38,931 nucleotides of DNA from Planctomycetota bacterium. GTDB taxonomy: Bacteria > Planctomycetota > DG-23 > DATKVD01. The notes under the pieces were generated by a model that saw only the letters and a list, made by a program, of their open reading frames with translations, was not told the origin of the DNA and made no database searches. Numbering within the stretch: the first letter of the stretch is position 1; each line of letters begins with the position of its first letter. A program made the translations under genes and the position numbers. Positions 13,805 to 34,875 of this stretch are shown here, one piece after another. The stretch is taken from the NCBI GenBank assembly GCA_035530235.1, contig DATKVD010000409.1:1-38931 (forward strand), written 5' to 3'.

Positions 13805-13825
13805 GTCTTGCCCTCCTCGAGGCGG

Positions 13826-14452
13826 TTATTCTGGTTCACCAACGACGGTAAGCGTCACGTCGTCGATCCAGAGCTCACCGTAGGCCCTGGTGTAGATGAA
13901 GACGTGGATGCGGACCTTGCCGTCGTCACCGGGTTTTCGTTTTCCGCTCGGCGGCTTCACCGTGACCTCTCCGGTGACCTCGGTCCAGTCGTAATCGGCC
14001 TTGTCGGGCAGGGGGATCTGTGCCCATCCGTCGCCGGGGTCGCCCTCGAAGTTGACCGCGCAGTTCCCCTTGGCGTCGACGCCCTTGAAGAAGCCGCGGA
14101 AACGGAGCCGGGTGCCCGGGGTCACGCGGATCTCGTCGGTGCACACGCCGCCCCGCCCGCGCTTCCGACACACCAGTCTCGCACACAGCTTGCCCGTCCG
14201 GCCCCGGCCCAGCTTGACGTCGTAGTCCCCGCCGTCCCAGAACCCCGAATACCCCCAGTGGGCGAAGGGACTGCGTGCGACGCCGTCGAGATCACCGTAG
14301 CCCCAGGGCTCGGCGGGGTAGGGCTTCCTCGGCCCGCTTCGGTCCTCGAACGACGGGTTCTTCACCAGGTTGCCCGCGGACGCGTCCTGCCCCGACGCCG
14401 CCGCGCACCACGCCATGCTGAAAACCGAAAGCAGGATCAGTGACCTTCTCAT
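13826..14452 (-). CDS. small secreted carbohydrate-binding-module-like (jelly-roll) protein
   Basis: The signal is MRRSLILLSVFSMAWCAAASGQ. NLVKNPSFED is a typical CBM4/9/22-type start. It is a clear paralog of the N-domain of 14453..16738 (WDGG.Y.V.L, G.RGGV, PGT.L.F, NFEG.PGDGW, YDWT.VT, WIDDVT). Its ATG (14452) directly abuts the upstream stop codon (14453-14455). Confidence 0.6.
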   Translation of the reverse strand: MRRSLILLSVFSMAWCAAASGQDASAGNLVKNPSFEDRSGPRKPYPAEPWGYGDLDGVARSPFAHWGYSGFWDGGDYDVKLGRGRTGKLCARLVCRKRGRGGVCTDEIRVTPGTRLRFRGFFKGVDAKGNCAVNFEGDPGDGWAQIPLPDKADYDWTEVTGEVTVKPPSGKRKPGDDGKVRIHVFIYTRAYGELWIDDVTLTVVGEPE

Positions 14453-16738
14453 TTACCTGTCTCCTACGATCTTGCGGAGTGCGACGATCGTCTCGGCCAC
14501 CTTGCCGCGGAAGGCGAAGTACCGGTCGGCGTCGCTGCTGTAGACGCCGGCGTCGGTGATGAGTTCGTCCATGGCGAGGAGCTCATGGGCACGCTTGAGC
14601 GCGGGGGGCATCTGTCCGCGCAGGCGCACCTTGTCGGCCAGCTGCTTGAGCGTCCACAGATACTCGTAGTCCTCGAACCCGTCCCGCAGGGCCTTCAGAC
14701 GGATCGACGGATAGGGCACGCCGTCCGGTCCCGGGTAGAGGAGATACCCGTCCCCGTTATAGCGGCCGAAGGTGTTGGGGTCCCACGGGGCGTCGGGCCA
14801 CTGGTTGGGGGGCTTTCTGCGCCAGTTGGTCCCCCACGACACCGGAGACCAGTATTCGAACCCGGCGGCGTTGTACTTCCAGCAGAACATCGGGATGATT
14901 CTGGCGTCGATGAGCGGGTATTCGATGAAGAGGTTCGGGTGGTCCATGGGATAGCAGCAGACGGCGAGCCAGGCCTCGGTGCCGCGCTCTTGCATGGCCT
15001 GGACGCCCGTCTTGTGATACTGGGCGATGTAGACGTCGAAGACGTCGACGTGCCCGGCGAGTTCTTTCACCCCCTCGGGCTCGTTGAGACACTGGAGGAT
15101 GCGCAGCTCGGGCGCGGCCTGCTTGATCGCCTTGGCGATCTTCTTCACCTCCCCCCAGTGTTTCCTGGGGGCTTCATCGTAGGTGTAGACGTAGGCCCTG
15201 TCGATCCAGCCCTTTTCGCGCAGGTGGTCGCCGTAGGCCTTCAGCATCTCCGTGAACTGTGCGATGAACTCGGGGGTGTATTCGTTCTTTCCGGCGCGCT
15301 TCAGGTTGGCCGCGGTGCCCATGATGAAGGCGTTCATGCCCCCGGCGGTGAGACGTTCGAGCGTCGCGTCGACGCCGGCGAAGTCGTACTTGCCGTCACG
15401 GCCCTTGCGGACGTGGGCGACCACCTCGCCCCCCGGACCCAGACGGTGCTCGAGCAGGATGTCCTGGTATCTCCGCACGGCTTCGCCGCGTTTTCGGTTG
15501 CCCTCGGGCGACCAGTCATACCCGTAGAACGAATGTGCCGCGCCCATGCCCAGCCACGTCATCGTCCGCAGGTGCGTCTCGTCGGTCACCGCGAAGTCCC
15601 ACACCGTCACCGTGATCGGCACCCGCGTCGGTTTCATGTCCTTCGGCGTGACCGTGATCGTTCCCGTGTAGGTTCCGGGCGGCGTGTCCTTCGCGGTCTT
15701 CACGGTGACCCACACGGGTGTGCGGGAGAGCGTCTTCACGGTGAAGGCGCCCGGCGGCATCAGGGGGTCCGGGTACCACCCCACGCGGTCCACGCGGTAG
15801 GGCGGGGTGATGGCCGTCTCGATGAAGTCGACGCGCCGCCACGACAGTGCGCTTGCCGGGATCACCGCACCCGCGGCGGTCTTCAGGTCGCTGAACGTGA
15901 CGTCCGAGACGGTGACGTCGCGCCAGGGGGCCTCGATGATGACCTGCGCGTCTTCATATTCGTTGCGTGCGAGCGAGACGGCGAGCGTGTTCGTCAGCTT
16001 GTCCGCCGGTGCGAAGTCGGTGTCGGGGTAGACCTTGACCAGCGCGCTTGCGGTGTCGATGCGGTAGCCGATGGACCCGGCGGGTTCCGGGATGTCCTTC
16101 GGCCTGGGCGGGACCAGTGCCGGGGTGTCGGGGGCTTCGGCCATCTCGTTCACGTCGACGGTCTCGACGGTCACGTCGTCGATCCACACGGAGCCCCGGG
16201 CCTTCGAGTAGACGAAGATCATCAGCGTCTGTCCGTCGGCGCGGCTGTGTCTGACGGGCACGACCGAGCGGTGGGTGACGTGCGTCCAGTCGTAGGTGCC
16301 GCCGTCGAGGTCCAGCTTGTTCCATCCGTCGCCCGGGGTGCCCTCGTAGTTGAGGAAGATGCGTCCGCCCTCGGCGTCCCGGGCCTTGATCCAGAACGAG
16401 ACCTTGAGGATGGTGCCCGGGAAGAGCTTGAACGGAGAGGACGCGACGCCCCCGCGGCCCTGCTTCCCGCAGCGGATCTCGATGGCATGCTTCCCCGTGT
16501 GGGCTTCATCCGAGAGATGCACGGTGTAGCGCCCGCCGTCCCACCCGCCGCCGAACACCCACCCGGCGGCCGGGCTGTCGTTCAGCCCCGGGTAGAAGCT
16601 CCTCTCCAACTCCGGCAGCTTCGCCTTGAAAGCCGTCGTCGTGGGCGTCTCGAAGCCCCCGTTGGCGATCAGGTTTTCCCCGGCGACCGCCGCCGATGCT
16701 AGGAGAAGCAGAACGCAGACCACCGCGTATCGTCGCAT
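14453..16738 (-). CDS. secreted CBM + DUF4091/GH123-like glycoside-hydrolase-like protein
   Basis: The signal is MRRYAVVCVLLLLASAAVAG, followed by a CBM-like N-domain. YTGTITVTPKDMKPTRVPITVTVWDFAV, YVYTYDEAPRKHW, FEYWSPVSWG and GDGYLLYPG..PYPSIRLKALRDGFEDYEYL fit my memory of DUF4091-containing enzymes. Confidence 0.65.
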   Translation of the reverse strand: MRRYAVVCVLLLLASAAVAGENLIANGGFETPTTTAFKAKLPELERSFYPGLNDSPAAGWVFGGGWDGGRYTVHLSDEAHTGKHAIEIRCGKQGRGGVASSPFKLFPGTILKVSFWIKARDAEGGRIFLNYEGTPGDGWNKLDLDGGTYDWTHVTHRSVVPVRHSRADGQTLMIFVYSKARGSVWIDDVTVETVDVNEMAEAPDTPALVPPRPKDIPEPAGSIGYRIDTASALVKVYPDTDFAPADKLTNTLAVSLARNEYEDAQVIIEAPWRDVTVSDVTFSDLKTAAGAVIPASALSWRRVDFIETAITPPYRVDRVGWYPDPLMPPGAFTVKTLSRTPVWVTVKTAKDTPPGTYTGTITVTPKDMKPTRVPITVTVWDFAVTDETHLRTMTWLGMGAAHSFYGYDWSPEGNRKRGEAVRRYQDILLEHRLGPGGEVVAHVRKGRDGKYDFAGVDATLERLTAGGMNAFIMGTAANLKRAGKNEYTPEFIAQFTEMLKAYGDHLREKGWIDRAYVYTYDEAPRKHWGEVKKIAKAIKQAAPELRILQCLNEPEGVKELAGHVDVFDVYIAQYHKTGVQAMQERGTEAWLAVCCYPMDHPNLFIEYPLIDARIIPMFCWKYNAAGFEYWSPVSWGTNWRRKPPNQWPDAPWDPNTFGRYNGDGYLLYPGPDGVPYPSIRLKALRDGFEDYEYLWTLKQLADKVRLRGQMPPALKRAHELLAMDELITDAGVYSSDADRYFAFRGKVAETIVALRKIVGDR

Positions 16739-17007: not shown

Positions 17008-17583
17008 TCATTCCTTCGCCCCCGCCTTGCGCAGGACGTCCGCAACGTCTTCGTGCGAACAGGAGACGGCCACCTTGAGCGCCGTAGTGCCGTCATTGCT
17101 CCGGGCGTTGATATCGGCGCCCTTGGCGATGAGAAGTTCGGCGACCTCCTTTTGCCCACGGGCGGCCGCCCAGCACAGGGGCGTCCACCCCTCACTGTTC
17201 CTGGCGTTGACGTCGGCGCCTTGGGAAATGAGAAGCTCGGCGACCTCCTCTTGCCCATCCTGAACCGCCCAATTCAGGGGTGTCCAGCCATCCCTCCCCG
17301 CTGCGTTGACGTCGGCGCCCTTGCACAGAAGCAAGTCGACCAGCGCGCGATTACGCCATCGTACGGCGAAGTAGAGCGGTGTGCGCCCGTCCCAGTCCCG
17401 CGCATTGACGGGAGAGGGGAAGGAATGCGCCAGATCCACGACCACCGTCTCGTCCCTTGCGTCCATCGCGATGGACATGGCCTTCTCGAGGATGCGGAGG
17501 CGGACGCAGTACGTCCCCGCGAGCGTGAGGACGAGGAAGAGGACCATCGACATCGGGGGGATGAACTTCTTGAGACGCATCAT
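17008..17583 (-). CDS. membrane-anchored ankyrin-repeat protein (4 repeats)
   Basis: The start ATGATG at 17583 follows GGAGGGGCG. The N-terminal hydrophobic helix is MSMVLFLVLTLAGTYCV. There are four ~33-aa repeats of type DGWTPLNWAVQDGQEEVAELLISQGADVNARN. The rest of track ORF 17008..18153 upstream is low-complexity. Confidence 0.75.
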   Translation of the reverse strand: MMRLKKFIPPMSMVLFLVLTLAGTYCVRLRILEKAMSIAMDARDETVVVDLAHSFPSPVNARDWDGRTPLYFAVRWRNRALVDLLLCKGADVNAAGRDGWTPLNWAVQDGQEEVAELLISQGADVNARNSEGWTPLCWAAARGQKEVAELLIAKGADINARSNDGTTALKVAVSCSHEDVADVLRKAGAKE

Positions 17584-18120
17584 CGCCCCTCCGCCAGGGT
17601 GTCGGTGCGGATTCCACAAGTATTCTACCGGGCGAAGTGGAGAGTTTCCAATGGCTTGCGGCCCCCCCACGGCCGGCCGGTCGCCTGGTCGTGGGGTCGC
17701 AGCGGGGCGGGATTCGATACTGATTCTCCGAGTCCTTGGGACGGGGAGGAATGATCGGATTGGCACCTCGTGGGGCAGTAAGTGTGCAGCGGTTCGCCAT
17801 GGTCTCTCCTCATCAGGAAAAGGACTTGCACCCACCTTCCCCCCCCCTCCCCCCATGGGGCCCACGGAACCGCCCCGCTGGACAGGAAATGTGAGGTTTT
17901 TACGGATTGCGTGTCTAATTGCGCCTAAGTGCGACTCTTGCAGCAAACTTGTGCGAAAATCTGCGTCTGGCGCCGGATTCGGCCGATATTTCACAATGTG
18001 CCGGTGCCAGGGTCGTGCAGTCGTTGGCGGTGGCGGCGGTTTCTCCCAACGTTCCGCGACAAGAAACAAGAGGATTTCGGAATCACGGAGGCCAATTTGG
18101 GGTATTAAGGTGGATGGCCA

Positions 18121-18256
18121 GACAGGATCCCCGAAAGGGCGAGCGCACCGCAAGGTGCGTGCGCAAAGTCACGGATCCCTGCAGGGATAGCCGGACTGCC
18201 GAAGGGACGAGTGGGGTTCGACCCGCACCTTCGGTGGAAGGCGCGGGTTGTTTTGT
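18121..18256 (+). promoter_or_regulatory. structured 5' leader (candidate riboswitch/attenuator) upstream of the giant cadherin-repeat gene
   Basis: A GCAA-capped 7-bp hairpin lies at 18143-18160. A weak GAAA-capped hairpin lies at 18130-18139. The helix CGG-ATCCC-tgca-GGGAT-ag-CCG spans 18072+100 (18172-18193). CCGAA(A)GGG(A)CGAG is a direct repeat (18131 and 18199). The helix 18196-18205:18228-18237 competes with the terminator hairpin at 18221-18248. Confidence 0.35.
18221..18256 (+). terminator. intrinsic-terminator-like hairpin plus U-tract inside the leader
   Basis: ACCCGC-a-CCTT / AAGG-c-GCGGGT forms 10 bp with one A.C mismatch and a 6-nt loop, followed by TGTTTTGT (18249-18256). It lies 60-130 nt upstream of the candidate start codons of the giant gene. 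Confidence 0.4.
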
Positions 18257-18315
18257 AAAGGGTTCAAAATATTGAGACGGTGCGCTGACGGCAGCCGGTC
18301 GCTTCACCGCAAGCG

Positions 18316-21300
18316 GTGGCGCGGACCGGACTTGGTGCGAACAGCCAACTGCCGAACGCTTTGCTCGTGAGAGGAACGCGACCTTTGGTGAAGTTTGAAG
18401 CGCTTGAACCCAGACTGCTTCTCGCTGCGGGGTGGGACGTTGTACTCATCGACGACGCCCTCCCCTCGTGGGACATCCTCTCAGCGTCGGCCGTTGAAGC
18501 CGACAGGATCATCCCCTACGACAGCGCCGCCGAGACGGCTGACGATGTCCTATCACGTGTGATTGAACTTGCCGAAGCCAACGATACCAGAATCGATTCA
18601 CTCTGCATCCTCTCGCACGGAGCGCCGGGCCGGTTCGCCCTGGGAAACGAGTGGGTCTCTCAGAGCACGCTTTCGTCGCTCTCCCCCGTCTGGACGAGAC
18701 TGGGCGAGGTGCTTGCCGACGGCGCGGATCTCCTCATCTTCGGGTGCAACGTGGCGGACGACGCCGGGGGACAGGCCCTCTTGGACAGACTGGGTGATCT
18801 TACCGGCGCGGATGTCTTTGCTTCGAACAACTTGACCGGCGTCGGCGGCGACTGGGTGCTGGAAGTGGCTTCGGCAGGCGACGAAGAGGAACTGGCTGCC
18901 GGGCTGGACCTGCCGCTGAACGCCTCGCTGCTCGATGCCTCCGACGTGAGTCTCGCCAACAGCGCCCCGGTGCTGGATAACACGCAGAGCCCGACGCTGA
19001 CGGCCGAGAACGAAGACGCGGGGACGCCCTTGGGGGCGGTGGGGACGCTGGTTTCCAGCCTGGTGGATTTCGCGGTCCCCAGCGGGCAGGTTGATAACGT
19101 GACCGATCCGGACTCGGGGGCCCTGCTGGGCATCGCGGTCACGTCGGCCGATACGACCAACGGCACGTGGCATTACTCCACCGACAACGGCACCAATTGG
19201 TTCGCGTTGGGGGCGGTGGCCAACAACAACGCGCGACTCCTGGCGGCGGACGCCAACACGCGGATCTACTTCCAGCCCAACGCCGACTACAACGGCACCC
19301 TGGCCAGCGCGATCACTTTCCGGGCCTGGGACCAGACCAGCGGAACGAACGGCGGCACGGCCGACACGATTGGCACCAGTAACAGTTTCCTCGATTGTTT
19401 CAGTTCCGCTTCGTACAGCAACAACGATGGGACACAGAGTTGGAGTACGAACTGGATCGAAAACGACATCGACGGTGGCGGTGCGACCGGCGGAAATATC
19501 GATGTGCCGACGCCATTTCTGCGAGTAATTGCGTCGCACGTTGGCGATCGAATCTACCGTGAAGCAGACCTGACCGGTGCATCGGCGGCCACGTTCTCAT
19601 TCTCACTCGATAACCGGATGGTCGGATCGGACCAGGTTGCCGTTCAGGTCTCCGGAGACGGCGGGAGTGGTTATACAACGCTGATGACGATCACGAGTGC
19701 GACCGCCAACGGAACGCTCAGTTTCGACATCTCCGCGTATATCGCCAGCAATACTCGGGTCCGCTTCTATGTCGTGCAGGGGCCACCGGGGCCAAGTGGG
19801 AACGAGGTACGGTTTGATGACGTTCAAATTGAGACTGTGACGGGCCACGGCGGCACCACGGCCTTCTCGTCCGCTACCGACACGGCCAGCCTGGTGATCA
19901 ACGCAATCAACGACGCCCCGATGATTAACGACCAGTCGCTCCCGAACGTCGACGAGAACGGTGCCAACGGGACCTCGGTCGGCACCGTGGTCGCCAGCGA
20001 TCCCGATGCCGGTGATTCGCTCACCTATTCAATCACGGCAGGCAACACGGGAGGGGCGTTTGCGATCGACCCGAACACCGGCGAGATCACGGTCAATAAT
20101 GGTGCGGCTCTCGACTTTGAAACAAACCCGGTCTTCAGTCTGACCGTGCAGGTCGAGGACACCGGAGCGCTCACCGATGATGCGACCGTGACCATCAACC
20201 TGAACGACCTCAACGAATCGCCCAGCATCAACGATCAAAGCCTGCCGAACATCGATGAAAACTCGGCGAACGGGACCTCGGTCGGCACCGTGGTCGCCAG
20301 TGACGTCGATGCCGGCGATTCGCTGACCTATACGATTACTGCCGGGAACACCGGTAATGCTTTCGCCATCGACCCGAACACGGGGGAGATTACCGTCAAC
20401 AACAGTGCGACCCTCGACTTCGAGACAAGGCCGGTCTTCAACCTGACGGTGCGGGTCGAGGACACCGGCGCTCTGACGGATGATGCCACGGTGACGATCA
20501 ACCTGAATGAAGTGAATGAGACCCCGACGATCAACGATCAAAGCCTCCCGAACATTGATGAAAACTCGCCTGACGGGACGAGTGTGGGGACTGGGGTTGC
20601 GAGTGACCCTGATGCCGGCGACAGCCTGACCTACAAGATCACTAGCGGAAACACGGGAAACGCCTTTGCCATTGACCCGGACACCGGTGAGGTCACGGTC
20701 AATAACAGCGGGGCTCTCGACTTCGGGACCGACCCGGTCTTCAACCTGACGGTGCAGGTGAAGGACACCGGTGCCCTGACGGATGATGCGATCGTGACGA
20801 TCGCCCTGAATGACCTCAACGAGTCGCCCATCATCGATGACCAGTCACTGCCGAATGTCGATGAGAACGCTGCGAGCGGCACCTTAGTCGGGACGGTCGT
20901 TGCCAGTGATCCCGATGCGGGGGACAGCTTGACCTACAGCATCACGGGTGGCAATACGGGTAACGGGTTTTCGATCAGTGCCTCCAGTGGTCAGATCAGG
21001 GTGAATAGCAGTGCCGCCCGGGACTTTGAGACGAATCCGGTCTTCTATCTGACCGTCGAGGTCGAGGATACGGGCGGACTGACGGATACCGCGACGGTGA
21101 CGATCAACCTCAATGACCTCAACGAGACCCCGACGATCAACGACCAGTCGCTCCCGAACCTCGACGAGAACAGTGCTAACGGTACCTTGGTCGGCACCGT
21201 GGTCGCCAGTGACGTCGATGCGGGCGATTCGCTGACCTACACGATTACCGGCGGGAACACCGGCAATGCTTTCGCCATCGATCCCAATACCGGCGAGATC

Positions 21301-22803
21301 ACGGTCAATAATTCGGCCGCTCTCGACTTCGAGACCAAGTCGGTCTTCAGCCTGACGGTGCAGGTCGAAGACACGGGTGCCCTGACGGATGATGCGACCG
21401 TGACGATTAATCTGAACGATCTCAACGAGTCGCCCATCATCAATGACCAGTCACTGCCGAATGTCGATGAGAACGGTGCTGATGGAACTCCGGTCGGCAC
21501 CGTCGTCCCCATCGACCCGGATGCGAGCGACTCACTAACGTACACGATCACCGGCGGCAACACCGGCAACGTCTTTGCGATAGACCCCGATACGGGTGAG
21601 ATTACTGTCAACAACTCGGCTGCGCTGGATTTCGAGACGCACCCGGTGTTCAGCCTCACCGTCCGGGTCGAGGACACCGGCGCCCTGACCGACACGGCAA
21701 CCGTGACGATCAATCTCAACGATCTCAACGAGTCCCCGAGTGTTGCCGACCAGGATGTCGTTGTCCTGATAGGCAGTCCCGACGGGACCGCGGTGGGCAC
21801 GATGAGTGCGACCGATCCGGATTCCGGCGACACGCTCACCTACGCAATCACGGGAGGGAACGGCAGCGGAATCTTCGCGATCGACGCGGCGGCCGGGAAA
21901 GTCACGGTGGCAGACGGTGCTGCGCCCGGCGCCGGGGGCGCAATCATCTACGTTCTGACGGTTCAAGTCACGGACGGGGGCGGCATGACCGACACGGCCA
22001 CCCTTACGATCGACCTTGCCCGGCCGTATGAGCCGCCGAGTGTGGATGAGCCCGGATCGTCCGGCGATGAGAACGGGGACGGAGACGACACGGACCGTGA
22101 GGGAAACAAGTCGACGCCCGTTCCAGGTAATCCATCCGACGACGGAGACGGGGATTCGCCCTCGGCACCGGATGAGGGGGCCACCCCTGATTACGGCGGC
22201 GGAAGGGATCCGGCCGGTCCTGCGAAAGATGAAGGGCCGCCGCCCGTTCCCGCAGAGCCGCCTGAGGCGGGAGAGCCCCCTGAGGCGGTGTCAGAACCGC
22301 AACCGGACATTCCAGCGGAGCCCGAGCCGGGGCCCCCTTTGCCCCCGAACGATGTCTCACCGACGCCGACGGCTCCCCAGGTTGTCACTGAGCTGGTGAA
22401 GCCCCTGCCGCCGGTGGCTCCCGTGACGGCGGCTGACGTGGTTTCGGAAACGGCGCCGGTCTGGGAGAGTCTGGACCACCTCGATGAGCACATGGACGAA
22501 CAAGCGGCCCAGCAGGCCCAATGGCAGACGGCCGCGGTCGGCACAACGACGGGCTTGACCTTCGCACTGTCGGTGGGATACATCGTCTGGTCGTACCAGA
22601 GCAGCGGGCTGCTGCTCAGCGTGCTGTCAAGTCTGCGTCTCTGGCGGTGGACCGACCCGCTGCCCATCCTGGAGTACTGGGAGCGGCAGGAACATCAGAG
22701 ACGTCGGAGGAAGAAGGGCTCAGGGGACACCGGCGATTCGGAAGAGAAGCGATTGGCGAGACTGTTTGAGCCGCGTCTCACCAGACACATTGAGACTCAA
22801 TAG
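18316..22803 (+). CDS. giant DUF4347-like / cadherin-repeat surface protein with Pro-rich stalk and C-terminal TM anchor
   Basis: The N-terminus has ..FEALEPRLLLAA, then ILSHGAPGRFALG..LLIFGCNVA..ADVFASNNLTG, which looks like DUF4347. Seven 100-aa cadherin-like repeats follow, then PEPxP-rich low complexity, then the hydrophobic AAVGTTTGLTFALSVGYIVWSY followed by RRRRKK. The codon at 18316 is GTG. TTG 18385 or GTG 18388, 8-11 nt after GAGGAA, are plausible true starts. Confidence 0.85.
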   Translation: MARTGLGANSQLPNALLVRGTRPLVKFEALEPRLLLAAGWDVVLIDDALPSWDILSASAVEADRIIPYDSAAETADDVLSRVIELAEANDTRIDSLCILSHGAPGRFALGNEWVSQSTLSSLSPVWTRLGEVLADGADLLIFGCNVADDAGGQALLDRLGDLTGADVFASNNLTGVGGDWVLEVASAGDEEELAAGLDLPLNASLLDASDVSLANSAPVLDNTQSPTLTAENEDAGTPLGAVGTLVSSLVDFAVPSGQVDNVTDPDSGALLGIAVTSADTTNGTWHYSTDNGTNWFALGAVANNNARLLAADANTRIYFQPNADYNGTLASAITFRAWDQTSGTNGGTADTIGTSNSFLDCFSSASYSNNDGTQSWSTNWIENDIDGGGATGGNIDVPTPFLRVIASHVGDRIYREADLTGASAATFSFSLDNRMVGSDQVAVQVSGDGGSGYTTLMTITSATANGTLSFDISAYIASNTRVRFYVVQGPPGPSGNEVRFDDVQIETVTGHGGTTAFSSATDTASLVINAINDAPMINDQSLPNVDENGANGTSVGTVVASDPDAGDSLTYSITAGNTGGAFAIDPNTGEITVNNGAALDFETNPVFSLTVQVEDTGALTDDATVTINLNDLNESPSINDQSLPNIDENSANGTSVGTVVASDVDAGDSLTYTITAGNTGNAFAIDPNTGEITVNNSATLDFETRPVFNLTVRVEDTGALTDDATVTINLNEVNETPTINDQSLPNIDENSPDGTSVGTGVASDPDAGDSLTYKITSGNTGNAFAIDPDTGEVTVNNSGALDFGTDPVFNLTVQVKDTGALTDDAIVTIALNDLNESPIIDDQSLPNVDENAASGTLVGTVVASDPDAGDSLTYSITGGNTGNGFSISASSGQIRVNSSAARDFETNPVFYLTVEVEDTGGLTDTATVTINLNDLNETPTINDQSLPNLDENSANGTLVGTVVASDVDAGDSLTYTITGGNTGNAFAIDPNTGEITVNNSAALDFETKSVFSLTVQVEDTGALTDDATVTINLNDLNESPIINDQSLPNVDENGADGTPVGTVVPIDPDASDSLTYTITGGNTGNVFAIDPDTGEITVNNSAALDFETHPVFSLTVRVEDTGALTDTATVTINLNDLNESPSVADQDVVVLIGSPDGTAVGTMSATDPDSGDTLTYAITGGNGSGIFAIDAAAGKVTVADGAAPGAGGAIIYVLTVQVTDGGGMTDTATLTIDLARPYEPPSVDEPGSSGDENGDGDDTDREGNKSTPVPGNPSDDGDGDSPSAPDEGATPDYGGGRDPAGPAKDEGPPPVPAEPPEAGEPPEAVSEPQPDIPAEPEPGPPLPPNDVSPTPTAPQVVTELVKPLPPVAPVTAADVVSETAPVWESLDHLDEHMDEQAAQQAQWQTAAVGTTTGLTFALSVGYIVWSYQSSGLLLSVLSSLRLWRWTDPLPILEYWERQEHQRRRRKKGSGDTGDSEEKRLARLFEPRLTRHIETQ
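19909..22008 (+). repeat. seven tandem 300-bp coding repeats (cadherin-like domains)
   Basis: Units start at 19909, 20209, 20509, 20809, 21109, 21409 and 21709. Each encodes N(D/E)xPxINDQSLPNxDEN..GT.VGTVVASD.DAGDSLTY.ITGGNTGNAFAIDPNTGEITVNN..LDFET.PVF.LTV.VEDTGALTDDATVTINLNDL. Units 2 and 5 share long near-identical nucleotide stretches (GGTCGGCACCGTGGTCGCCAGTGACGTCGATGC..). Confidence 0.85.
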
Positions 22804-22815
22804 GGAGGAAGACCC

Positions 22816-25242
22816 ATGTTGGGCAAACGGGCATCGGCGGCAACGCGCATCAGCCTGGGACTGGTGGGGCTGACGGTCACGCTGCTGCTCGTGGCACAGT
22901 TGGTCGGACTTGTACCCGACCGGTCCGAGGCCATTCTCAAAGGCCGAAAGGCGTTGTGCGAGGCCGTTGCGTTTCACTGGGCTATCGCGGCCCAGACATC
23001 GGACCTTTCCTGGATACGGGCCGCGGGGGACAGTGTCGTCAAGCGGAACCCGGACGTCCTCTCGATCGCCCTGCGCTCCGACGACGGAAAACTGCTGGTC
23101 GAGGCAGGCGAGCATGAGGCGTTCTGGGAGGAACTCCCGACCGGTGAGTCCACCGTGAATCAGGCCGTCGTGCCGATCTTCGGGCTTCCGGGCCGCACGC
23201 CCCGGGGCCAGATAGAAGTCCGTTTCGCGTCGCTGGACGGCGGGGGACTGCTTTCGTGGCTGCGGATTCCCATCTTCGGCATGGTGCTCTTTCTCGCCGT
23301 CTGGGGTTTTCTCGTTTTCCGGGTCTACATGGGCAGGACGCTCCAGCACCTCGACCCGTCCAAGGTTGTTCCTGAGCGTGTGAAAGTGGCATTGAACATC
23401 ATGTCGGAGGGCGTGGCGCTCCTGGACGACAGGGAGCGCATCGTTCTGGCGAATGATGTTTTCGCGGCAACCCTCGGTGTTCCCGCGTCCGAGTTGCAGG
23501 GACAGCGTATCGGCGGACTGTCGTGGCGACAGCAGGACTCCGGCAAGCCGCCTGAAGAGTATCCTTGGACGGAGGCCCTGCGTGAAGGAAAGACTCTGCG
23601 CGGCGTCGCGCTGGTGCTGCCGGACGGCCCGAAGGGTGTCCGAACATTTGTGGTCAACGTGACCCCCATCCTGGGTGCGGGCAAGACGCCCAAGGGCGCG
23701 CTCGCGACCTTCGACGATGTCAGTGCCGTCGAAGAGAAGAATGCCCGTCTCCGGGAAATGCTGAAACTGCTCAAGGAATCACAGAAGAAGGTCAACTGCC
23801 AGAACCAGCAACTCCAGGAGTTGGCCGCGCACGACCCGCTGACCGGATGTCTGAACCGCCGTGCCTTCTTCGAGAACGCCGAAATCGCGTGGAGTGCCGC
23901 CAAGAGATACGGCTATCCTCTCGGCTGCATCATGGTGGACGTGGACCATTTCAAAGCGGTCAACGACCGTCACGGGCACGCCGTGGGTGACCAGGTCCTT
24001 CGGGAACTGGCCAGGAGGCTTCAGTTGGGCAGCCGGGACAGCGACGTGATCTGCCGTTACGGCGGAGAGGAGTTCTGTATCCTCCTCTTGCACGCCGACA
24101 TCGAACAGACGTTGAAAGCAGCTGAACACTACCGTAAGTCGATCGAGTCCAAGGATCACGCCGGTATCCCTGTGACGGTGAGCTTGGGTTGTTCGGCCAC
24201 GGAATCCGGGGCGACCGACCTGCACGAGCTGCTCAACCAGGCCGACCAGGCCCTCTATGTGGCCAAGAGATCCGGGCGAAAATGCTCGGCCAGATGGGAC
24301 GACGTAGCCCAAGAGGTGAAAATCGAAAAAACGAGCCCCTTGTCCGAAGAACTCCCGGGGGATGCCAAGTTGGCCGTCCCCATTCCCATCCAGGCCGTGA
24401 ATGCACTGATGGCCGCTCTAGCCCATCGGGACATCACAACGGCGGAACACAGTCGGGAGGTCGCCGAGCTCTGCGTGACAACGGCCGAGGGTCTCATGTC
24501 CCCCAGCGAGTGCTTCGTGCTTGAGGTCGCCGCACTTCTCCACGACATCGGCAAGCTCAGTGTGCCGGATTGGGTCCTGCTCAAGCCCGGGCCGCTTACG
24601 GAGGAAGAGTGGCGGGTAATGCACCACTACAACGAAATGGGCGTCGGAATCATCGCCTCGGCCTTCGCCAGCGCCCAGCTGACCGAAATCGCGCGATACC
24701 ATCGTGCGTGGTACGGCGGACGTCCCGACAAGCCGGCCATGCCGACGGGGAAGGACATTCCGCTCCGGGCCAGGATCCTCGCCATCGGCGATGCCTTCAG
24801 CGCCATGACCGGCAATCGTCCCTATCGCAAAGCCATGCGTCAGGAGGAAGCGTTCGAAGAACTCCGCCGCTGCTCAGACACGCAGTTCGACCGCGAACTG
24901 GTGGAGTTATTCATCGAAAAAGTGCCGGCCCGTGACCAGAGCAGGAGAACCAGTGAGACGGCTTTCTCCGAAGGGACGTTGCTGGAAATCGGCAGGCAGA
25001 CCGAAGGACTTGTCTCGGCTCTGGAGGCTCAGGACATAAGCACGCTGGCGGTCCTCGCCGGGCGACTGGCGGCGGTCGCAACCAAACAGGGAATGCCCAC
25101 GATCGCGCAACGTGCAGCCCAGCTCCAGGAAGCCGCTCGGGGCGATGGTGATCCGGAGACCATTCTCCAACTCACAACCGATCTTCTGAATCTCTCGCGC
25201 CTGGAGCGGGAGAATCACCTCGCCGCCAAACGCAGCTCCTGA
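22816..25242 (+). CDS. membrane sensor PAS-GGDEF (diguanylate cyclase) fused to an HD-GYP-like domain and a helical C-terminal tail
   Basis: ATG 22816 lies 13 nt after the stop of the giant gene, behind GGGAGGAAG. There are two N-terminal TM segments and a PAS-like NIMSEGVALLDDRERIVLAND. RDSDVICRYGGEEFCILL carries an RxxD I-site plus GGEEF (24061-24075). ALLHDIGK supplies the HD (24541-24546). DIPLRARILAIGDAFSAMTGNRPYRKAM is the HD-GYP family C-motif. Confidence 0.85.
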   Translation: MLGKRASAATRISLGLVGLTVTLLLVAQLVGLVPDRSEAILKGRKALCEAVAFHWAIAAQTSDLSWIRAAGDSVVKRNPDVLSIALRSDDGKLLVEAGEHEAFWEELPTGESTVNQAVVPIFGLPGRTPRGQIEVRFASLDGGGLLSWLRIPIFGMVLFLAVWGFLVFRVYMGRTLQHLDPSKVVPERVKVALNIMSEGVALLDDRERIVLANDVFAATLGVPASELQGQRIGGLSWRQQDSGKPPEEYPWTEALREGKTLRGVALVLPDGPKGVRTFVVNVTPILGAGKTPKGALATFDDVSAVEEKNARLREMLKLLKESQKKVNCQNQQLQELAAHDPLTGCLNRRAFFENAEIAWSAAKRYGYPLGCIMVDVDHFKAVNDRHGHAVGDQVLRELARRLQLGSRDSDVICRYGGEEFCILLLHADIEQTLKAAEHYRKSIESKDHAGIPVTVSLGCSATESGATDLHELLNQADQALYVAKRSGRKCSARWDDVAQEVKIEKTSPLSEELPGDAKLAVPIPIQAVNALMAALAHRDITTAEHSREVAELCVTTAEGLMSPSECFVLEVAALLHDIGKLSVPDWVLLKPGPLTEEEWRVMHHYNEMGVGIIASAFASAQLTEIARYHRAWYGGRPDKPAMPTGKDIPLRARILAIGDAFSAMTGNRPYRKAMRQEEAFEELRRCSDTQFDRELVELFIEKVPARDQSRRTSETAFSEGTLLEIGRQTEGLVSALEAQDISTLAVLAGRLAAVATKQGMPTIAQRAAQLQEAARGDGDPETILQLTTDLLNLSRLERENHLAAKRSS

Positions 25243-25662
25243 CGCGATCGATGCGGTGCTGATGACGGGTTACGGTGCTTCCGCCGCAGACGGTTGGCGG
25301 CTTGCATGCAACCCGCTGCCGTGATATGAGACAGGCCCTCGTTTCTCAACCCCTGTTCCCACCGAGGGCCTGAAGATGCCATCCATGGCAGTCTCCCGCA
25401 TCCCTCCCCGAGCTGGACTCGGACCAGGAATCCGCCGAGGCGGATTGACAGCCTTTCGCGATCTGCGGGAGCGGGATTGCCTCATGCTGGCGCGATTCAT
25501 CACCGGAGACAGGCCGCGTCTGTGCGTTTGATCCGAGGGCGCATGTGAACTGCCGGGAGGGAGGTCACTTCTTGTCGGTCTTGGCGGGTTCTTCGGGTTT
25601 CTTCTCGAGCTTCTTCAACGGTTCGGCGGCCCGTCGGCCCCTGGTTATTCACTTGTCCTTAT

Positions 25663-27021
25663 TCATCCCCCTTTGTGTTGGCCGTGGCTGACGGGGGCGC
25701 CGATGAGGGGCCAGGCGTACTTGCCCAGGGCCAAGGACACCAAGTCCGCGTGCGAGGTGACCAGCCGGAAGGTCAGGAGTGCCGTCGCCGCCGCCAGGCC
25801 GAAGAGGATGCCGCCCAGGTGGGCCCAGTGGGCCGTGCCGGTCTCGGCACCCACCAGGGTGAAGATCACGTCGAAGGCGACGTAGAACAGCACCAGGAGC
25901 ACGCCGCGGACGGCAAAGATCTTTATCGAAAGACGGAACCTGGCAATAAGCCCCCATCGCATCCATATCGCCATGTACACCCGCTGTAGCGGGAACAGCA
26001 CGAGGTACATGCCGGCCAGACCCATGATGGCCCCGGAGGCCCCCAGCATGGGTGTCGGCACGCCGGCCGCCTCGGCCGTCATGTGGGCCCACGCCGCCAG
26101 CACCGCCAGCAGCGGGTAGAGCAGCGCCGTCCACACGTTGCCCACCAGGGCGTTCACCCGGGTGCCGAGGACCAGCAGAAAGACGAGGTTGCCCGCCAGG
26201 TGCATGATGTCGGCATGGAGGAATGCCGAGGTGACCATCTGGTAGAGGTGGAACTCGCCCAGCGACCGCTGTTCGGGTGTCAGGGCCTGGTAGGTTTCGC
26301 GAATCAACCGGTCCTCCGGGACCGTCCCTTCCAGTTCCTCGGCCTTCCGGACGAAGGCGTCTGAGTCACCGTAGCTGGTATACTCGTAGAACGCGATGAT
26401 CTGCTCGTCGGAAGCGGGCGCCTTGCCCGCCCAGAGCATCAGGTTCTTGAGGCTCTGCATCTGGGGCGCACCGCGCCATTCGTAGGACCAGAACACCACG
26501 CTGGCCAGCACCGTTGCCGCCGCAATGACCCAGACGGCCCACGGCTTCTTCCGCCCCGGGGCCTCGGAGTAGACCGGATAAAGTCCGAACGGGATGAGCC
26601 AGCTGATGGGACGGAGGACCTGTTCGACGCGGCCCTCCAGCTCATTGCGATCGACGTCGCGGGCCGTCAGGACGGGCCGGCCGCTCGGAAGATAGATGCC
26701 GCAGTCCACACACACCTTGGCGTCCATGGGCAGCGGGCGGGCGCAGCTCGGACAGAACGTGCCGGCGGCCGTCGGATGCAGCGGGTCCGTGCGAAGGGGT
26801 TCCGGCCGGGCAGGTGCCGCCGCCGCGCGGCGCGGGGGCCTGTCATCGGCGGCGCCCAAGGCCGCATCATTTGCATGGGGGCCGGACGGCTCGGGTGCGG
26901 GTTCGGCGGACTCGGGCACACGCAGGATCGAACTGCACCTGGGGCAGCGTCCCTTTCGGCCGCCCTTGTCGTCGGCGACCCGCAGGACGCTCCCGCACTG
27001 CGGACACTGGAAGCTGATCAT
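25663..27021 (-). CDS. rhomboid-family intramembrane serine protease with N-terminal zinc-ribbon domains
   Basis: FLHADIMHLAGNLVFLLVLG is the HxxxN motif and GASGAIMGLAG is the GxSG catalytic Ser motif. HWAHLGGILFG carries the catalytic His. The N-terminus has CPQCGS..CPRCSS and CPSCAR..CVDCG zinc ribbons. Confidence 0.8.
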   Translation of the reverse strand: MISFQCPQCGSVLRVADDKGGRKGRCPRCSSILRVPESAEPAPEPSGPHANDAALGAADDRPPRRAAAAPARPEPLRTDPLHPTAAGTFCPSCARPLPMDAKVCVDCGIYLPSGRPVLTARDVDRNELEGRVEQVLRPISWLIPFGLYPVYSEAPGRKKPWAVWVIAAATVLASVVFWSYEWRGAPQMQSLKNLMLWAGKAPASDEQIIAFYEYTSYGDSDAFVRKAEELEGTVPEDRLIRETYQALTPEQRSLGEFHLYQMVTSAFLHADIMHLAGNLVFLLVLGTRVNALVGNVWTALLYPLLAVLAAWAHMTAEAAGVPTPMLGASGAIMGLAGMYLVLFPLQRVYMAIWMRWGLIARFRLSIKIFAVRGVLLVLFYVAFDVIFTLVGAETGTAHWAHLGGILFGLAAATALLTFRLVTSHADLVSLALGKYAWPLIGAPVSHGQHKGG

Positions 27022-27382
27022 GACCCCCGCCCTCGACGGGAATGGGGCGATTCACTTTCCGGCCGCCTTCGGCGGTCTCCCGGATTGCCGTCCAGACCCG
27101 GGTCCCGCTCTGCCCATGCATTCTAAGGGCTTCACATCAGCATCTCCAGAAAAAAAAGACGCCGGCGGCATTGCGGAGTGAATGTCATTGGGGGCCTCCG
27201 GGCCTGCGCCCGGGGAGAGGAGAATCCGGCCCGTCCGTGGAGAGTCAAGCATGGTGTCCCCGGAACTCCAAAAACAGCGTGGCCGCCCAGAGTAACTGTT
27301 GCTCTGCAGGCCCGTCTACCTCATACTGATTGACGTGCCTTGCAGCAGGAAACGGGCATTCCATCATGAGGAACGATCGGAC

Positions 27383-28444
27383 ATGAACACCCGGCGTGTG
27401 GCGTTGGCGGTGACAGTCGGCGTGATCGTCGCGGCAGCTGCAGGCTGCGGAAGCAAGGCCTCACAGCACGAGCCATCGGACCGAGTGAAGGCGGACGCAA
27501 AGGAAAGCAGTGCTGGACAACCCGGATCGAAGGCGGAACCCCCCAAGGCGGAGACCGCGAAATCCCAGAAAGAGCCGCCGGAAGTCAGGGACAATTCCGC
27601 GAAGGGATATCCGCCGGTTTCGGCGCAAGGAGAAGGCCCCGCCACGGCACAAGACAAGCAGAACACGCGCGGCGACGTGACGCCGCCCGCCTTTGAAGTG
27701 GTGGACGGGCCCCGAACCGACGAGCAAGGACTCATCTCCTGGACGATCACCAGTCCTTATCAGAAGGGGCCCAACCCGGTACAGGTCCTTTGCCCCGATC
27801 AGGTGAAGAAAGGGACGCGTCTCCGGGTCATCTACGTCCTTCCGGTGAACCCGGGCATCAACAGTGGATGGGGCAGCGGAATCGTCGAGGCGAAACGTCT
27901 GGACCTCCACAACAAGTACGGCGTCATGTTCGTCTGCCCGGCGTTCGAGCGGGGGCCGAATTATGGGGATCATCCCACCGATCCCACGTGGCGCCATGAG
28001 AGTCACATTGTGAACGCGGTCGTCCCGTTCATCGAACAGCATTACCCGGTTCTGGCCGAGCCGCGCGGGCGGCTGCTTCTCGGATTCAGCATGTCGGGCT
28101 GCGGGGCGCTCAGCCTGCTCCTGCAGCATCCGGATGTTTTCGGCAGGATCGCCTCCTGGGACGCGCCCCGGCACTGGAGGTGGTGGCCGCCTGACCCCGG
28201 CCAGTTGCAGTCGACGCGCCCCTGGCAGCCCGACGCCTTGCTCGATCAACGCGCCGAGATGCTGAAGACGGGAGGGAGTCGTATAGCCCTGCTCGGCTAT
28301 GACTGCTACCGGGCCGACGCGGAGTCGACCCACAAGAAGCTGCTGTCGCTCGGCATCCCGCACGACTACAGCAATGACAAGTACCATCGGCATTGCTGGG
28401 GAAGCGGCTGGTTTGCTCCGGCCGTCGAGATACTGCTGAAATGA
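27383..28444 (+). CDS. lipoprotein, esterase-D/putative-esterase family alpha/beta hydrolase
   Basis: ATG 27383 follows GAGGAA. MNTRRVALAVTVGVIVAAAAGC is a lipobox-like signal, followed by a low-complexity K/E/P linker. LLLGFSMSGCGALSLLLQHPDVFG contains the GxSxG nucleophile elbow. Confidence 0.6.
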   Translation: MNTRRVALAVTVGVIVAAAAGCGSKASQHEPSDRVKADAKESSAGQPGSKAEPPKAETAKSQKEPPEVRDNSAKGYPPVSAQGEGPATAQDKQNTRGDVTPPAFEVVDGPRTDEQGLISWTITSPYQKGPNPVQVLCPDQVKKGTRLRVIYVLPVNPGINSGWGSGIVEAKRLDLHNKYGVMFVCPAFERGPNYGDHPTDPTWRHESHIVNAVVPFIEQHYPVLAEPRGRLLLGFSMSGCGALSLLLQHPDVFGRIASWDAPRHWRWWPPDPGQLQSTRPWQPDALLDQRAEMLKTGGSRIALLGYDCYRADAESTHKKLLSLGIPHDYSNDKYHRHCWGSGWFAPAVEILLK

Positions 28445-28798: not shown

Positions 28799-30445
28799 AT
28801 GCGAGCTTTTCTGTGCGCGTGTTGCACGGTGCTGCTGCTTTATTCCGGGGCGAGCGCTCAGGAGGTGAAAGTCCTCGAGTTGCTGAAGGTCGCGGGACCT
28901 GCGGACGCGAAGCAGTTGCCCGGTTTCTTCCCGACCAGCGCATGCAATGCCGCCGTCGGCGTCGAGGCAGATCCGGCCGGTGCCTGGATCACGGTCGTCT
29001 TCGACAAGCCCGCTCAGGACGCGAAGCAAACGTTCTCCGCCGTCCTCTTCGAGTTCGACTACACGCGAGCGGTGGAGCCATTCGATTGGCGAAAGGCCCC
29101 GGACGGCACGGAGGAATGGCCGAACACATGGACGGGCTATGACGCCTTTGTTTTCGACTACGACAATCCGGAGAAGACCCCGGTCAAGGTCAAGGTGCTG
29201 CTGCAGGATTACGTAAGCTGGTATCACACGGACGTCGACGGGCTGGTCCGGCTGAACCATGTTGGTCCGCAGCAGAAGTACCTGCCTCAGATGTATCAAG
29301 AGGATATCGAACTCAAGCCAGGCAAGGGCCGCGCGAGCATCGACCTCCGGAAGGCGATGTGGACGAGCAAGACCCCGCCCGAAGTCGAGAGTCGAGAGAA
29401 GGTTCCCTGGGGCATGTCGGCGCTGTCGCGGTCGAGCCAAAAGAAGGGGTTGGAACTTCTCGACATGCGGGCCTTCGGCCTGTGCAATCCGTCGCCGGAG
29501 AAGAAACTGACGGTGAAGGTGAACAACTTTCGCCTGGAGGCGCGAGACAGGAAGGCAGGCGTCATCACGTGGCCGGAGCGAGCGACCTGCCCAAAATGCG
29601 GGGGCAAGACCAGCGACCGCTACGCCCCGTTCTGTCCCTTCTGCGGGGCTGAGATGAAGGACAGCCTCTACGACGAGCTGCTAAAGAAGAAGGTCCCGGC
29701 CGCCTCAGACCACACCGTTATCGTTCCAGCGGTCGAAGCTGCCGGCGGCGGCTCCAGCACTGGGGGCGGCAAGGGGCTGATGTCGTACGGCAGGAGCATC
29801 ATCACCGTGCACCACTATGACGTCAATTACAGAAACCCCAAGGGCCCCCAAGTTCCGAAGCTCAACAGCATCTGGGAGGCCCGTTATTATCTGAAGTTCG
29901 AGCTGGGCAAGGAATTCGACCGCAAGCCCGCGGTGAAGAGCGCAACGCTTTGGACCTTTGGATCAAAGCCGAATATCCCGAAGGGACAGGAGAACGATCC
30001 GCGGTGGGCCTGGGCCGATCCGAAGAACGGCATGTCCCTCTGGTTCTCCGGGAAGATCTGGCTGCCGGGACTGCTGGTCTTCGCGGTGGACCGCCAATAC
30101 AACGACTGGGACCCGAAGATGAACTGGGTCACGATGCCGCCTCTGGGAAAACTCATCTACGTGAGCGGGCAATACCCCGGTCGCTGCACACAGATGTATG
30201 GAAACGAGAAGGCCATTGCGCCCACTCTCGGCGAGGAATCGCCCAGGTGGTTGTGTCTGGACATTACGGAGTACGTCAAAGAAACAACAGCCGCCGGGGA
30301 TAAGGTTTTCACCCTCGGCCTGAAGGCGTTCACCCCTTTCGGCGCGATGCGGGAACCGCACGGGTTGGGCCACTGTTTCAGCGGCAGCGGTCTTGTCAGG
30401 GACGAGGAACTGCGGCCGAGGATCGTCGTCGAACTGGAGCCCTGA
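28799..30445 (+). CDS. secreted protein of unknown function (jelly-roll-like N-part, embedded CxxC..CxxC zinc ribbon, DNRLRE-like C-part)
   Basis: ATG 28799 follows AGGAGG. The signal is MRAFLCACCTVLLLYSGASAQ. The zinc ribbon is CPKCGGKTSDRYAPFCPFCG. The C-terminal RYYLKFELG..SATLWTF..NDWDPKMNWVTMPP resembles DNRLRE-type domains, from memory only. Confidence 0.55.
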   Translation: MRAFLCACCTVLLLYSGASAQEVKVLELLKVAGPADAKQLPGFFPTSACNAAVGVEADPAGAWITVVFDKPAQDAKQTFSAVLFEFDYTRAVEPFDWRKAPDGTEEWPNTWTGYDAFVFDYDNPEKTPVKVKVLLQDYVSWYHTDVDGLVRLNHVGPQQKYLPQMYQEDIELKPGKGRASIDLRKAMWTSKTPPEVESREKVPWGMSALSRSSQKKGLELLDMRAFGLCNPSPEKKLTVKVNNFRLEARDRKAGVITWPERATCPKCGGKTSDRYAPFCPFCGAEMKDSLYDELLKKKVPAASDHTVIVPAVEAAGGGSSTGGGKGLMSYGRSIITVHHYDVNYRNPKGPQVPKLNSIWEARYYLKFELGKEFDRKPAVKSATLWTFGSKPNIPKGQENDPRWAWADPKNGMSLWFSGKIWLPGLLVFAVDRQYNDWDPKMNWVTMPPLGKLIYVSGQYPGRCTQMYGNEKAIAPTLGEESPRWLCLDITEYVKETTAAGDKVFTLGLKAFTPFGAMREPHGLGHCFSGSGLVRDEELRPRIVVELEP

Positions 30446-30677: not shown

Positions 30678-30894
30678 CATCAAAGGACGGCTTCACAGGA
30701 TCCGGTCCGGCCCCAAGCGAGGAGGGATAGCCCCCTTTTCCACTGAAGGCCTGGTGTCATTGTGGTGATTGACTGGAGAGCACGTCTTGATAGAATAAAA
30801 TCAGACTTGATAGCCGCTTGGCAACAGTGGATGACGGAAGCACCAGGGAGCGGGTCAAGAGGAGTTGTGCCTCCAACAAGCCAAGGAGCCGCTC

Positions 30895-34850: not shown

Positions 34851-34875
34851 CGAACAAACTCCCTCTTGTGTATGG

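Follow-up and report, generated by a model that had tools for sequence, protein, structure and literature searches.

We describe here a two-gene module, composed of a gene for a giant, presumably membrane-tethered surface protein and a gene for a sensor enzyme of cyclic di-GMP (c-di-GMP) signalling that follows it directly, in contig DATKVD010000409.1 of a bacterium from the phylum Planctomycetota (assembly GCA_035530235.1). The whole analysed stretch of 38,931 nucleotides (nt) is referred to below as the window. Judging from sequence comparisons, the window holds one instance of a widespread module, in which the giants share a conserved C-terminal tail and the sensors share an N-terminal input module. 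The pairing of giant and sensor is itself real, which we consider practically certain. As to its function, our preferred interpretation, to which we assign a probability of about 0.55, is that signals pass from the outside in, the giant acting as an extracellular antenna or co-receptor through which the sensor, and with it c-di-GMP signalling, receives its input.

The two genes, and the parts of their products that carry the argument, are as follows.

18316..22803, plus strand: giant surface protein, 1495 amino acids (aa) from a GTG start (open reading frame, Pfam, NCBIfam)
18394..18429, plus strand: N-terminal motif of the LEPR-XLL type (FEALEPRLLLAA; FEALEPRLLL) (NCBIfam NF012209)
22453..22800, plus strand: conserved C-terminal tail of the giant, residues 1380-1495 (alignments, profile searches, AlphaFold2)
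22804..22815, plus strand: intergenic spacer of 12 nt with a GGAGG ribosome-binding site (sequence)
22816..25242, plus strand: downstream enzyme, 808 aa, with two transmembrane (TM) helices, PAS, GGDEF and HD_5/HD domains (Pfam)
22816..23760, plus strand: sensor (input) module of the enzyme, the part that co-occurs with the tail (alignment, AlphaFold2, Foldseek)
23761..25242, plus strand: output half of the same enzyme, with a GGDEF domain and a divergent domain of the HD-GYP type (Pfam, NCBIfam, motif conservation in 120 orthologues)

The pairing emerges from the comparison of gene neighbourhoods. An alignment of the sensor module, used as the query in a scan of one genome per GTDB species, yielded 286 relatives, from which 80 loci were retrieved; their six-frame translations were scored with a hidden Markov model (HMM) of the tail, and 79 of the 80 were testable. 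The sample covers Planctomycetota (Tepidisphaeraceae, Phycisphaeraceae, Pirellulaceae, Isosphaeraceae and Planctomycetaceae), Gammaproteobacteria (Methylococcales, Chromatiaceae, Thiogranum and Thiotrichales), Nitrosomonas from the Betaproteobacteria, and Desulfobacterota. Related loci are designated by L numbers, L002 being the closest relative of the window. A tail-bearing open reading frame (ORF) lies directly upstream of the sensor gene and on the same strand in 74 of the 79 testable loci, at a median distance of 22.5 nt and at no more than 130 nt in 71 of the 74. Starting in reverse from the tail, we found the sensor downstream in all four cases looked up (4/4), and each of eight enzyme relatives on long contigs is preceded on the same strand by a protein of 1389-5646 aa that ends just upstream (8/8), the domains of these upstream proteins being variable (DUF4347 with cadherin, Calx-beta, or none). 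In none of these eight loci is the pair followed by a rhomboid gene. Conservation in 74 of 79 loci across three phyla rules out a chance adjacency of the giant and sensor genes. The window itself conforms to the pattern, with a tail match at the extreme C-terminus of the giant and the sensor gene 12 nt downstream on the same strand. The original prediction, made from the letters of the window alone, had linked the giant to the GGDEF/HD-GYP enzyme encoded behind it, and the 74/79 loci together with the 4/4 reverse look-ups bear this link out as a real functional pair. The two genes of the window share one reading frame and are likely to be co-transcribed; the strong Shine-Dalgarno sequence that had been noted ahead of the enzyme gene is there (GGAGG), though the gap, given earlier as 13 nt, measures 12 nt.

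The two partners also diverge in step. The divergence of the tail correlates with that of the sensor at r=0.70, a value that none of 2000 permutations reached (0/2000), and two domains within the sensor give r=0.74. The comparison shows, at the level of sequence, that tail and sensor have been inherited over the long term as a unit. With respect to gene number, we observed two separate giant-sensor pairs per genome behind L027 and L049 and in the metagenome-assembled genome behind L041/L042, and in L009 two tandem tail-bearing genes (L009:173-1879, 568 aa, and L009:2243-9949, 2568 aa) ahead of one sensor gene. The choice of query mattered in these searches: a single full-length enzyme retrieved no close relative in the genome scan, in which the sensor-module alignment succeeded. 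The sensor module was not matched in a search of plasmids.

The tail was recognized as the common element of the giants in the eight loci examined first, where the last ~95 residues of the upstream proteins are homologous in 8/8 and the bodies differ (cadherin, Calx-beta, no Pfam match). Its consensus begins with LWxQLDxL and continues, after ~12 variable residues, with VGxxAGLTxxLSVGYVIW, xRGG, xLvATLLttLPxWRWxDPLPvL and a charged end; the WxxxDPL core is invariant at W, D, P and L. In the window, the tail comprises an amphipathic helix, a long hydrophobic helix (AAVGTTTGLTFALSVGYIVWSY, residues 1406-1427, nt 22531-22596), a W-x-W-x-DPLPIL motif and a charged end. The helix had been predicted before, and its position and its richness in small residues stand; the RRRRKK segment that was thought to follow it directly is located 34 residues further on, and the helix turned out to be weakly hydrophobic. 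Some 70 conserved or charged residues lie past it. The profile built from the eight tails retrieved 821 proteins from a word-indexed database, and it matched 5,473 of the 1.84 billion cluster representatives against which it was run exhaustively, 4,086 of them at E<=1e-10; among the matches listed, full-length proteins carry the match at their very C-terminal end. Against the tail HMM, the window tail reaches 129 bits. Used as a lone query in the word-indexed search it returned zero matches, the window's own protein included, and the eight-tail profile was required. Neither Pfam nor NCBIfam contains a model that matches the tail at E<=10, and by these searches it is a C-terminal domain family left unannotated by current databases.

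AlphaFold2 models the tail as a single 36-residue helix, with pLDDT values of 88-96 in that stretch and 75 overall. The family consensus, which has RGG and LPxW in the middle of the segment, points to two helices separated by a turn, the first a TM helix and the second interfacial or re-entrant. Because of the positive-inside rule, we favour the N-out/C-in topology, in which the charged end would be cytoplasmic. It should be added that this most conserved part of the tail shows a lineage-specific departure in the window (22597-22640) and in L002: both have QSS/QSG where ~78% of the family has RGG, and in the same stretch Arg replaces the family Pro of LPxW.

The conserved counterpart of the tail is the input module of the sensor. 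It consists of a first TM helix (TM1, residues 8-30), a periplasmic PAS-like domain of the alpha2-beta4 type (36-137), a second TM helix (152-178), an HLDPSxVIP linker and a cytoplasmic PAS domain (187-301). Its AlphaFold2 model has a pLDDT of 90, and in a Foldseek search the top match was WalK in a model of the WalK-YycH complex (9a5d), the remaining matches being generic PAS domains. The conservation of TM1 equals that of the PAS domain, and in both partners conservation peaks next to the membrane, at HLDPSxVIP in the sensor and at RGG and WxxDPLPvL in the tail. The TM-PAS-GGEEF-HD-GYP-like architecture proposed earlier for the window enzyme agrees with Pfam (GGDEF, E 3.7e-43; HD_5/HD, E 6.2e-27) and with the two TM helices, and orthologues are full-length across Planctomycetota at 45-54% identity. 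Over its first ~305 residues, the enzyme shares 38% identity (E 8e-58) with the N-terminal part of a proteobacterial hybrid histidine kinase that is likewise encoded behind a tail gene, and a third sensor behind a tail gene, its output also unlike that of the enzyme, is 39% identical (E 2e-69). The numbers of loci with particular outputs are as follows.

Planctomycetota: GGDEF+HD-GYP, 16; hybrid kinase, 12; GGDEF only, 2
Desulfobacterota/"delta": GGDEF+HD-GYP, 8; GGDEF or GGDEF+EAL, 6
Gammaproteobacteria: GGDEF+EAL, 19; GGDEF only, 10; hybrid kinase, 2
Betaproteobacteria (mostly Nitrosomonas): GGDEF+EAL, 5; GGDEF only, 1

Such variation of the output by lineage, with the input module remaining constant, is what one would predict for a tail that communicates with the input side. 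In the proteobacterial case mentioned above, the tail gene is followed by the gene of the PAS hybrid histidine kinase and then by a REC-GGDEF-EAL gene. More generally, hybrid-kinase sensors are usually followed by a REC-GGDEF-EAL gene in Gammaproteobacteria or by an HD-GYP gene in Planctomycetota (L010:4553-6406, L095:4937-6331, L025, L027, L052, L062, L067, L085). Since a gene of a c-di-GMP enzyme usually follows, the hybrid-kinase pathway would still end in the turnover of c-di-GMP.

The GGDEF domain of the window enzyme possesses the motifs expected of an active diguanylate cyclase, GGEEF (416-420), FKxxND (379-384) and the I-site RDSD (RxxD, 407-410), all conserved in the family, and it matches TIGR00254 at E 6e-50. 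Since GGEEF is present in 120/120 orthologues and the I-site in ~112/120, the enzyme is predicted to be a working transmitter, unlike the degenerate receptor LapD. The HD-GYP half retains H545, H576, D577, K580 and D659, and the canonical GYP is replaced by W(Y/F)GGxP throughout its family. Between residues 630 and 668 (nt 24703-24819), the window protein departs from positions conserved in its own family at four places (H630R, D662S, S666G and D667N), which makes the phosphodiesterase activity of this half doubtful; it may be inactive in the source organism.

The giant begins with the LEPRxLL motif and continues with a DUF4347 head (residues 42-192, E 1.5e-30), a cadherin region that Pfam matches in seven stretches (E 3.9e-104) and a stalk rich in Pro, Glu and Asp (residues ~1235-1375) ahead of the hydrophobic segment, which leads into the conserved tail. 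The head, the seven repeats and the stalk had all been recognized in the first reading of the window, whose features are all present at, or close to, the coordinates given there. An alternative start of the gene at 18385, 69 nt later, appears in the public gene call of an identical metagenome contig and would yield a protein of 1472 aa. The match to NF012209 (residues 26-38; 19.4 bits, cut-off 17) places the giant among the LEPR-XLL proteins, and the motif recurs in the giants of L002, L009, L020, L036, L046, L048, L060, L063, L088 and L091. Complete giants in all three phyla begin with LE[PAS]RxL[LMF]S, usually followed by a DUF4347 head. As the tails align and several giants share the N-terminal LEPRxLL, these proteins are conserved at both ends and free to vary in between. 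The head itself found in a PDB sequence search only two short and weak matches to de novo designed TIM barrels, which are uninformative.

It is tempting to regard LEPR-XLL as a signal. The giant of the window has no Sec-type signal peptide. It also has no HemolysinCabind/RTX match, which sets it apart from the adhesins of type I secretion systems (T1SS) with a C-terminal RTX/T1SS signal. The giant of L044 (L044:1461-5447) carries a classical Sec signal peptide (MRNMRQSKRFAALATALLLLATLIASPCSSAA) in place of LEPRxLL, so that the motif may substitute for an export signal, and it may represent a non-classical signal of export or targeting. Export of the body is supported by the Sec peptide of L044 and by the domains of extracellular type (FG-GAP, cadherin, laminin-G, lectin) used in the bodies of the giants.

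In ~8/81 loci, genes of the HlyD family and a ~710-aa fusion of Peptidase_M50 (site-2 protease, S2P) with HlyD occur near the pair (L034:13316-17693, L060:13149-20014; L040, L043, L055, L068, L074, L087), in a few loci in the company of a ~540-aa unannotated ORF that is possibly an outer-membrane factor. A small periplasmic adaptor of the HlyD type (~310 aa) lies directly upstream of the giant or downstream of the sensor in 9 loci (e.g. L036:1944-2894, L046:1-312, L060:1061-1990, L008:12783-13784). The HlyD and M50-HlyD genes may be export or processing machinery for the giant, and their cluster in ~8/81 loci indicates that intramembrane processing or a dedicated export apparatus may exist in some lineages. 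As a universal third component of the module the cluster was rejected, because it is confined to these ~8/81 loci and absent from the window.

We propose the following scenario. The giant would be held in the cytoplasmic membrane by its conserved ~95-residue tail, with the body exported. The membrane helix of the tail and the juxtamembrane WxxDPLPxL segment would associate with the TM helices of the sensor and with the HLDPSxVIP linker. Contact, load or ligand binding on the giant, or loss of the giant, would then alter the state of the sensor and hence its output. In the window, this output would be the synthesis of c-di-GMP by the intact GGDEF domain under feedback through the I-site, with the HD-GYP-like domain as a possibly weakened phosphodiesterase; elsewhere, the same input would drive GGDEF-EAL enzymes, or a hybrid histidine kinase and then the product of the REC-GGDEF-EAL or HD-GYP gene. 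The outside-in direction is suggested by the constancy of the input module with the tail, by outputs that are transmitters, histidine kinases among them, by the invariant GGEEF and by the conserved I-site. The original prediction envisaged c-di-GMP controlling the anchoring or release of the giant; the pairing on which it rested stands, and the direction it assumed fits less well than the reverse, as the input module is the conserved partner.

Several observations weigh against this scenario. Adjacency is equally compatible with a sensor that controls the giant, and the contact between tail and sensor is inferred; the co-divergence at r=0.70 is no proof of contact, as shared phylogeny contributes to it. 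Five sensor loci have no tail gene upstream. In the window, the tail helix is only marginally hydrophobic (Kyte-Doolittle peak 1.41) and the topology of the tail is ambiguous, the one helix of the AlphaFold2 model, with its moderate overall pLDDT, standing against the RGG and LPxW in the middle of the consensus segment. The giant lacks a Sec signal peptide that would explain its route out of the cytoplasm. Finally, the four departures in the HD-GYP half leave the net enzymatic output of the window enzyme uncertain.

The same pair can be read in the opposite, Lap-like direction, in which the sensor responds to a cue from the cytoplasm or periplasm and, by contacting the tail, determines the conformation and display of the giant or whether it is retained or released, the output domains being mainly local regulators. 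The synteny data fit this scheme equally well, the retention of giant adhesins controlled by c-di-GMP has a precedent in LapD/LapG/LapA (PMC6890996, PMC13090378), and the I-site of the GGDEF domain means that the protein can probably also bind c-di-GMP. We nonetheless consider it unlikely, if worth keeping in mind, since it is the input module that is conserved with the tail, the outputs being freely swapped and including such transmitters as hybrid histidine kinases with REC and Hpt domains, and since GGEEF is invariant, unlike the degenerate domains of LapD. Moreover, neither the window nor the recurrent neighbours revealed a LapG-like protease or a calcium-dependent cysteine protease, Pfam detects neither LapD_MoxY_N nor HAMP in the enzyme, and the NCBIfam model of LapD matches its GGDEF region only, at 47 bits against a cut-off of 1020. 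One may also imagine that the sensor module is mainly a membrane dock or insertion partner for the tail, with signalling as a secondary function that reports the presence of the giant, e.g. after breakage or shedding. The tightly conserved gene order and spacing, suggestive of co-translation or co-assembly, the unusually high conservation of the sensor TM1 and the locus with two tail-bearing genes before a single sensor would all suit a dock, but a pure dock would need neither the conserved cytoplasmic PAS domain nor outputs that appear catalytically intact, and five sensors have no adjacent tail gene to receive; we regard this explanation as quite improbable. The remaining alternative concerns one of the two genes that flank the pair.

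17008..17586, minus strand: ankyrin-repeat protein, ~191 aa, membrane-anchored (Pfam, gene call)
25663..27021, minus strand: rhomboid protease with two N-terminal zinc ribbons, residues 5-33 and 88-108 (Pfam Rhomboid, E 1.3e-21)

According to the original prediction, the zinc-ribbon rhomboid could cleave the giant at its C-terminal helix, a shedding step that the GGDEF/HD-GYP enzyme would couple to c-di-GMP. The rhomboid is indeed intact, with the HxxxN, GxSG and His motifs visible in the translation as HLAGN, GASG and AHLGG, and it has the two zinc ribbons and the convergent orientation 420 nt past the enzyme gene that had been reported. The helix of the tail is rich in small residues, a bacterial precedent exists in the processing of C-terminal helices by rhombosortase at GlyGly-CTERM (PMC3237569, PMC6219818), and another family of intramembrane proteases, the M50/S2P-HlyD fusion, occurs near the pair in 8/81 loci. 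However, none of the 80 species-representative loci has a rhomboid within 10 kb of the pair (0/80), and L002, the closest relative, has none either. On the sole informative long contig (L097, from the metagenome scan), the relative of the window's rhomboid has neither tail nor sensor nearby. The rhombosortase model TIGR03902 does not match, NCBIfam searches with the rhomboid gave only zinc-ribbon matches at E<=0.01, and the GlyGly-CTERM model does not match the tail at E<=10. The tail also continues for ~70 residues past the helix with its core conserved throughout, unlike a disposable sorting signal, and the rhomboid gene is convergent with the pair and separated from it by 420 nt. The role of the rhomboid as partner protease is thus not supported, and we consider shedding by it very improbable. 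A PDB sequence search with the rhomboid returned nothing.

The ankyrin gene had also been counted as a member of the neighbourhood. The membrane-anchored, divergently oriented protein is real: the ORF spans 17008..18153 on the minus strand, the actual start is most likely the methionine of MMRLKK/MRLKK at ~17583-17586, and the product has one N-terminal TM helix and ankyrin repeats. Its membership in the module did not survive, as the synteny check revealed no syntenic homologue. Because neither the rhomboid nor the ankyrin gene is syntenic with the pair, both are best treated as chance neighbours.

The absence of LapG/LapD-like and T1SS genes, asserted earlier for the window, holds in the ten flanking ORFs scanned (7.6-37.8 kb), in which we found no Lap, T1SS or S2P genes and, in particular, no genes of an ABC transporter, membrane fusion protein or TolC. 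Since the window contains no LapD/LapG homologue and no T1SS, the label "Lap-independent" is fair. The flanking genes include a set for polysaccharide degradation that is typical of planctomycetes:

14453-16738 (minus), 34876-37785 (minus), 30865-32331 (plus), 27299-28444 (plus), 32952-35138 (minus): two GH123 paralogues, a sulfatase, an esterase and an FG-GAP protein

Pfam matches none of three adjacent minus-strand ORFs of 208-839 aa (9498-14452). It likewise has no match for a 548-aa ORF (28799-30445, plus strand), which contains a CPKCG...CPFCG motif resembling a zinc ribbon and recalling those of the adjacent rhomboid. The ORFs 14585-16702 (plus), 18598-19539 (minus) and 22720-23349 (minus) are shadow ORFs opposite real genes, typical of DNA with ~63% G+C, and not genes.

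The module can be compared with several known systems. With the Lap systems of Pseudomonas, Vibrio and Desulfovibrio (Dvh) it shares the functional link between a giant repeat-rich adhesin and a c-di-GMP protein of the inner membrane that has two TM helices and a small periplasmic domain, and the clustering of the genes. However, LapA is a T1SS/RTX substrate held N-terminally at the outer membrane, whereas the giant of the window has no RTX end and carries a C-terminal tail for the inner membrane. LapD has degenerate GGDEF and EAL domains together with HAMP and acts via the protease LapG, whereas the window enzyme has PAS instead of HAMP and a second domain of the HD type instead of EAL, in a family with invariant GGEEF and outputs that include histidine kinases. 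The closest system in logic is WalK-YycH/YycI of Bacillota, where the activity of WalK is controlled by the adjacently encoded single-pass membrane proteins YycH and YycI (PMC7355866, PMC5013275), and where the sensor has the same layout of a TM helix, an extracytoplasmic PAS-like domain, a second TM helix and a cytoplasmic PAS domain. On the other hand, YycH and YycI are small, anchored N-terminally and without sequence homology to the tail, whereas the giants are anchored C-terminally, and the output of WalK is a classical two-component kinase for cell-wall genes.

In the route from PilY1 and the type IV pilus alignment complex to SadC, and in the Wsp system, a surface adhesin or an envelope sensor likewise relays contact to a diguanylate cyclase (PMC8846402), but the hardware consists of pili or a chemosensory array, with no adhesin tethered in the membrane beside the cyclase. 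The rhombosortase/GlyGly-CTERM system of Vibrio and Shewanella resembles the module in that a protease of the rhomboid family processes the C-terminal TM helix of exported proteins (PMC3237569, PMC6219818); its tripartite signal, however, has ~20-25 residues at the extreme C-terminus, as opposed to a tail of ~95 residues with motifs past the helix. Finally, the LEPR-XLL/DUF4347 giants with RTX ends, such as the ~8000-aa protein of Vibrio sp. VB16, share LEPRxLL and usually the DUF4347 head (PMC10868602), but they end in RTX/serralysin-type T1SS sequences and are released or held at the outer membrane, whereas giants of the window type end in the membrane tail and are paired with a sensor.

In the literature on DUF4347, on LEPR-XLL and on giant adhesins with a diguanylate cyclase we found no description of a giant-sensor module. 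A census of the sensory inputs of c-di-GMP signalling from 2022 lists as surface-sensing apparatuses only Wsp, type IV pili and the flagellum, and contains no sensor coupled to a giant adhesin (PMC8846402). It is tantalizing to consider the module as a fourth class of such apparatus, distributed over Planctomycetota, Gamma- and Betaproteobacteria and Desulfobacterota, in which a tethered giant adhesin marked by LEPRxLL, exported by neither Sec nor T1SS, passes contact or mechanical load directly via its tail to a sensor that sets c-di-GMP levels or, in some lineages, drives a phosphorelay ending in a c-di-GMP enzyme; we advance this only tentatively, as a conjecture less likely to be true than not. 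The module does extend the theme of a sensor with a membrane-anchored accessory protein, using a new family of C-terminal domains.

For the window locus, the synteny result corrects the account of shedding by a rhomboid, and the link between a giant and a c-di-GMP enzyme proves far more general than the window alone could show. The tail family occurs in thousands of protein clusters, its carriers including ammonia oxidisers, methanotrophs, sulfate reducers and planctomycetes, and it gives a handle on the anchoring of the LEPR-XLL/DUF4347 giants. The ways in which bacteria sense surfaces and convert this into c-di-GMP and biofilm formation are understood for a few apparatuses only. If our preferred interpretation is true, these organisms would possess a direct and genetically compact route of surface sensing, in which a giant adhesin is wired to a sensor of its own.

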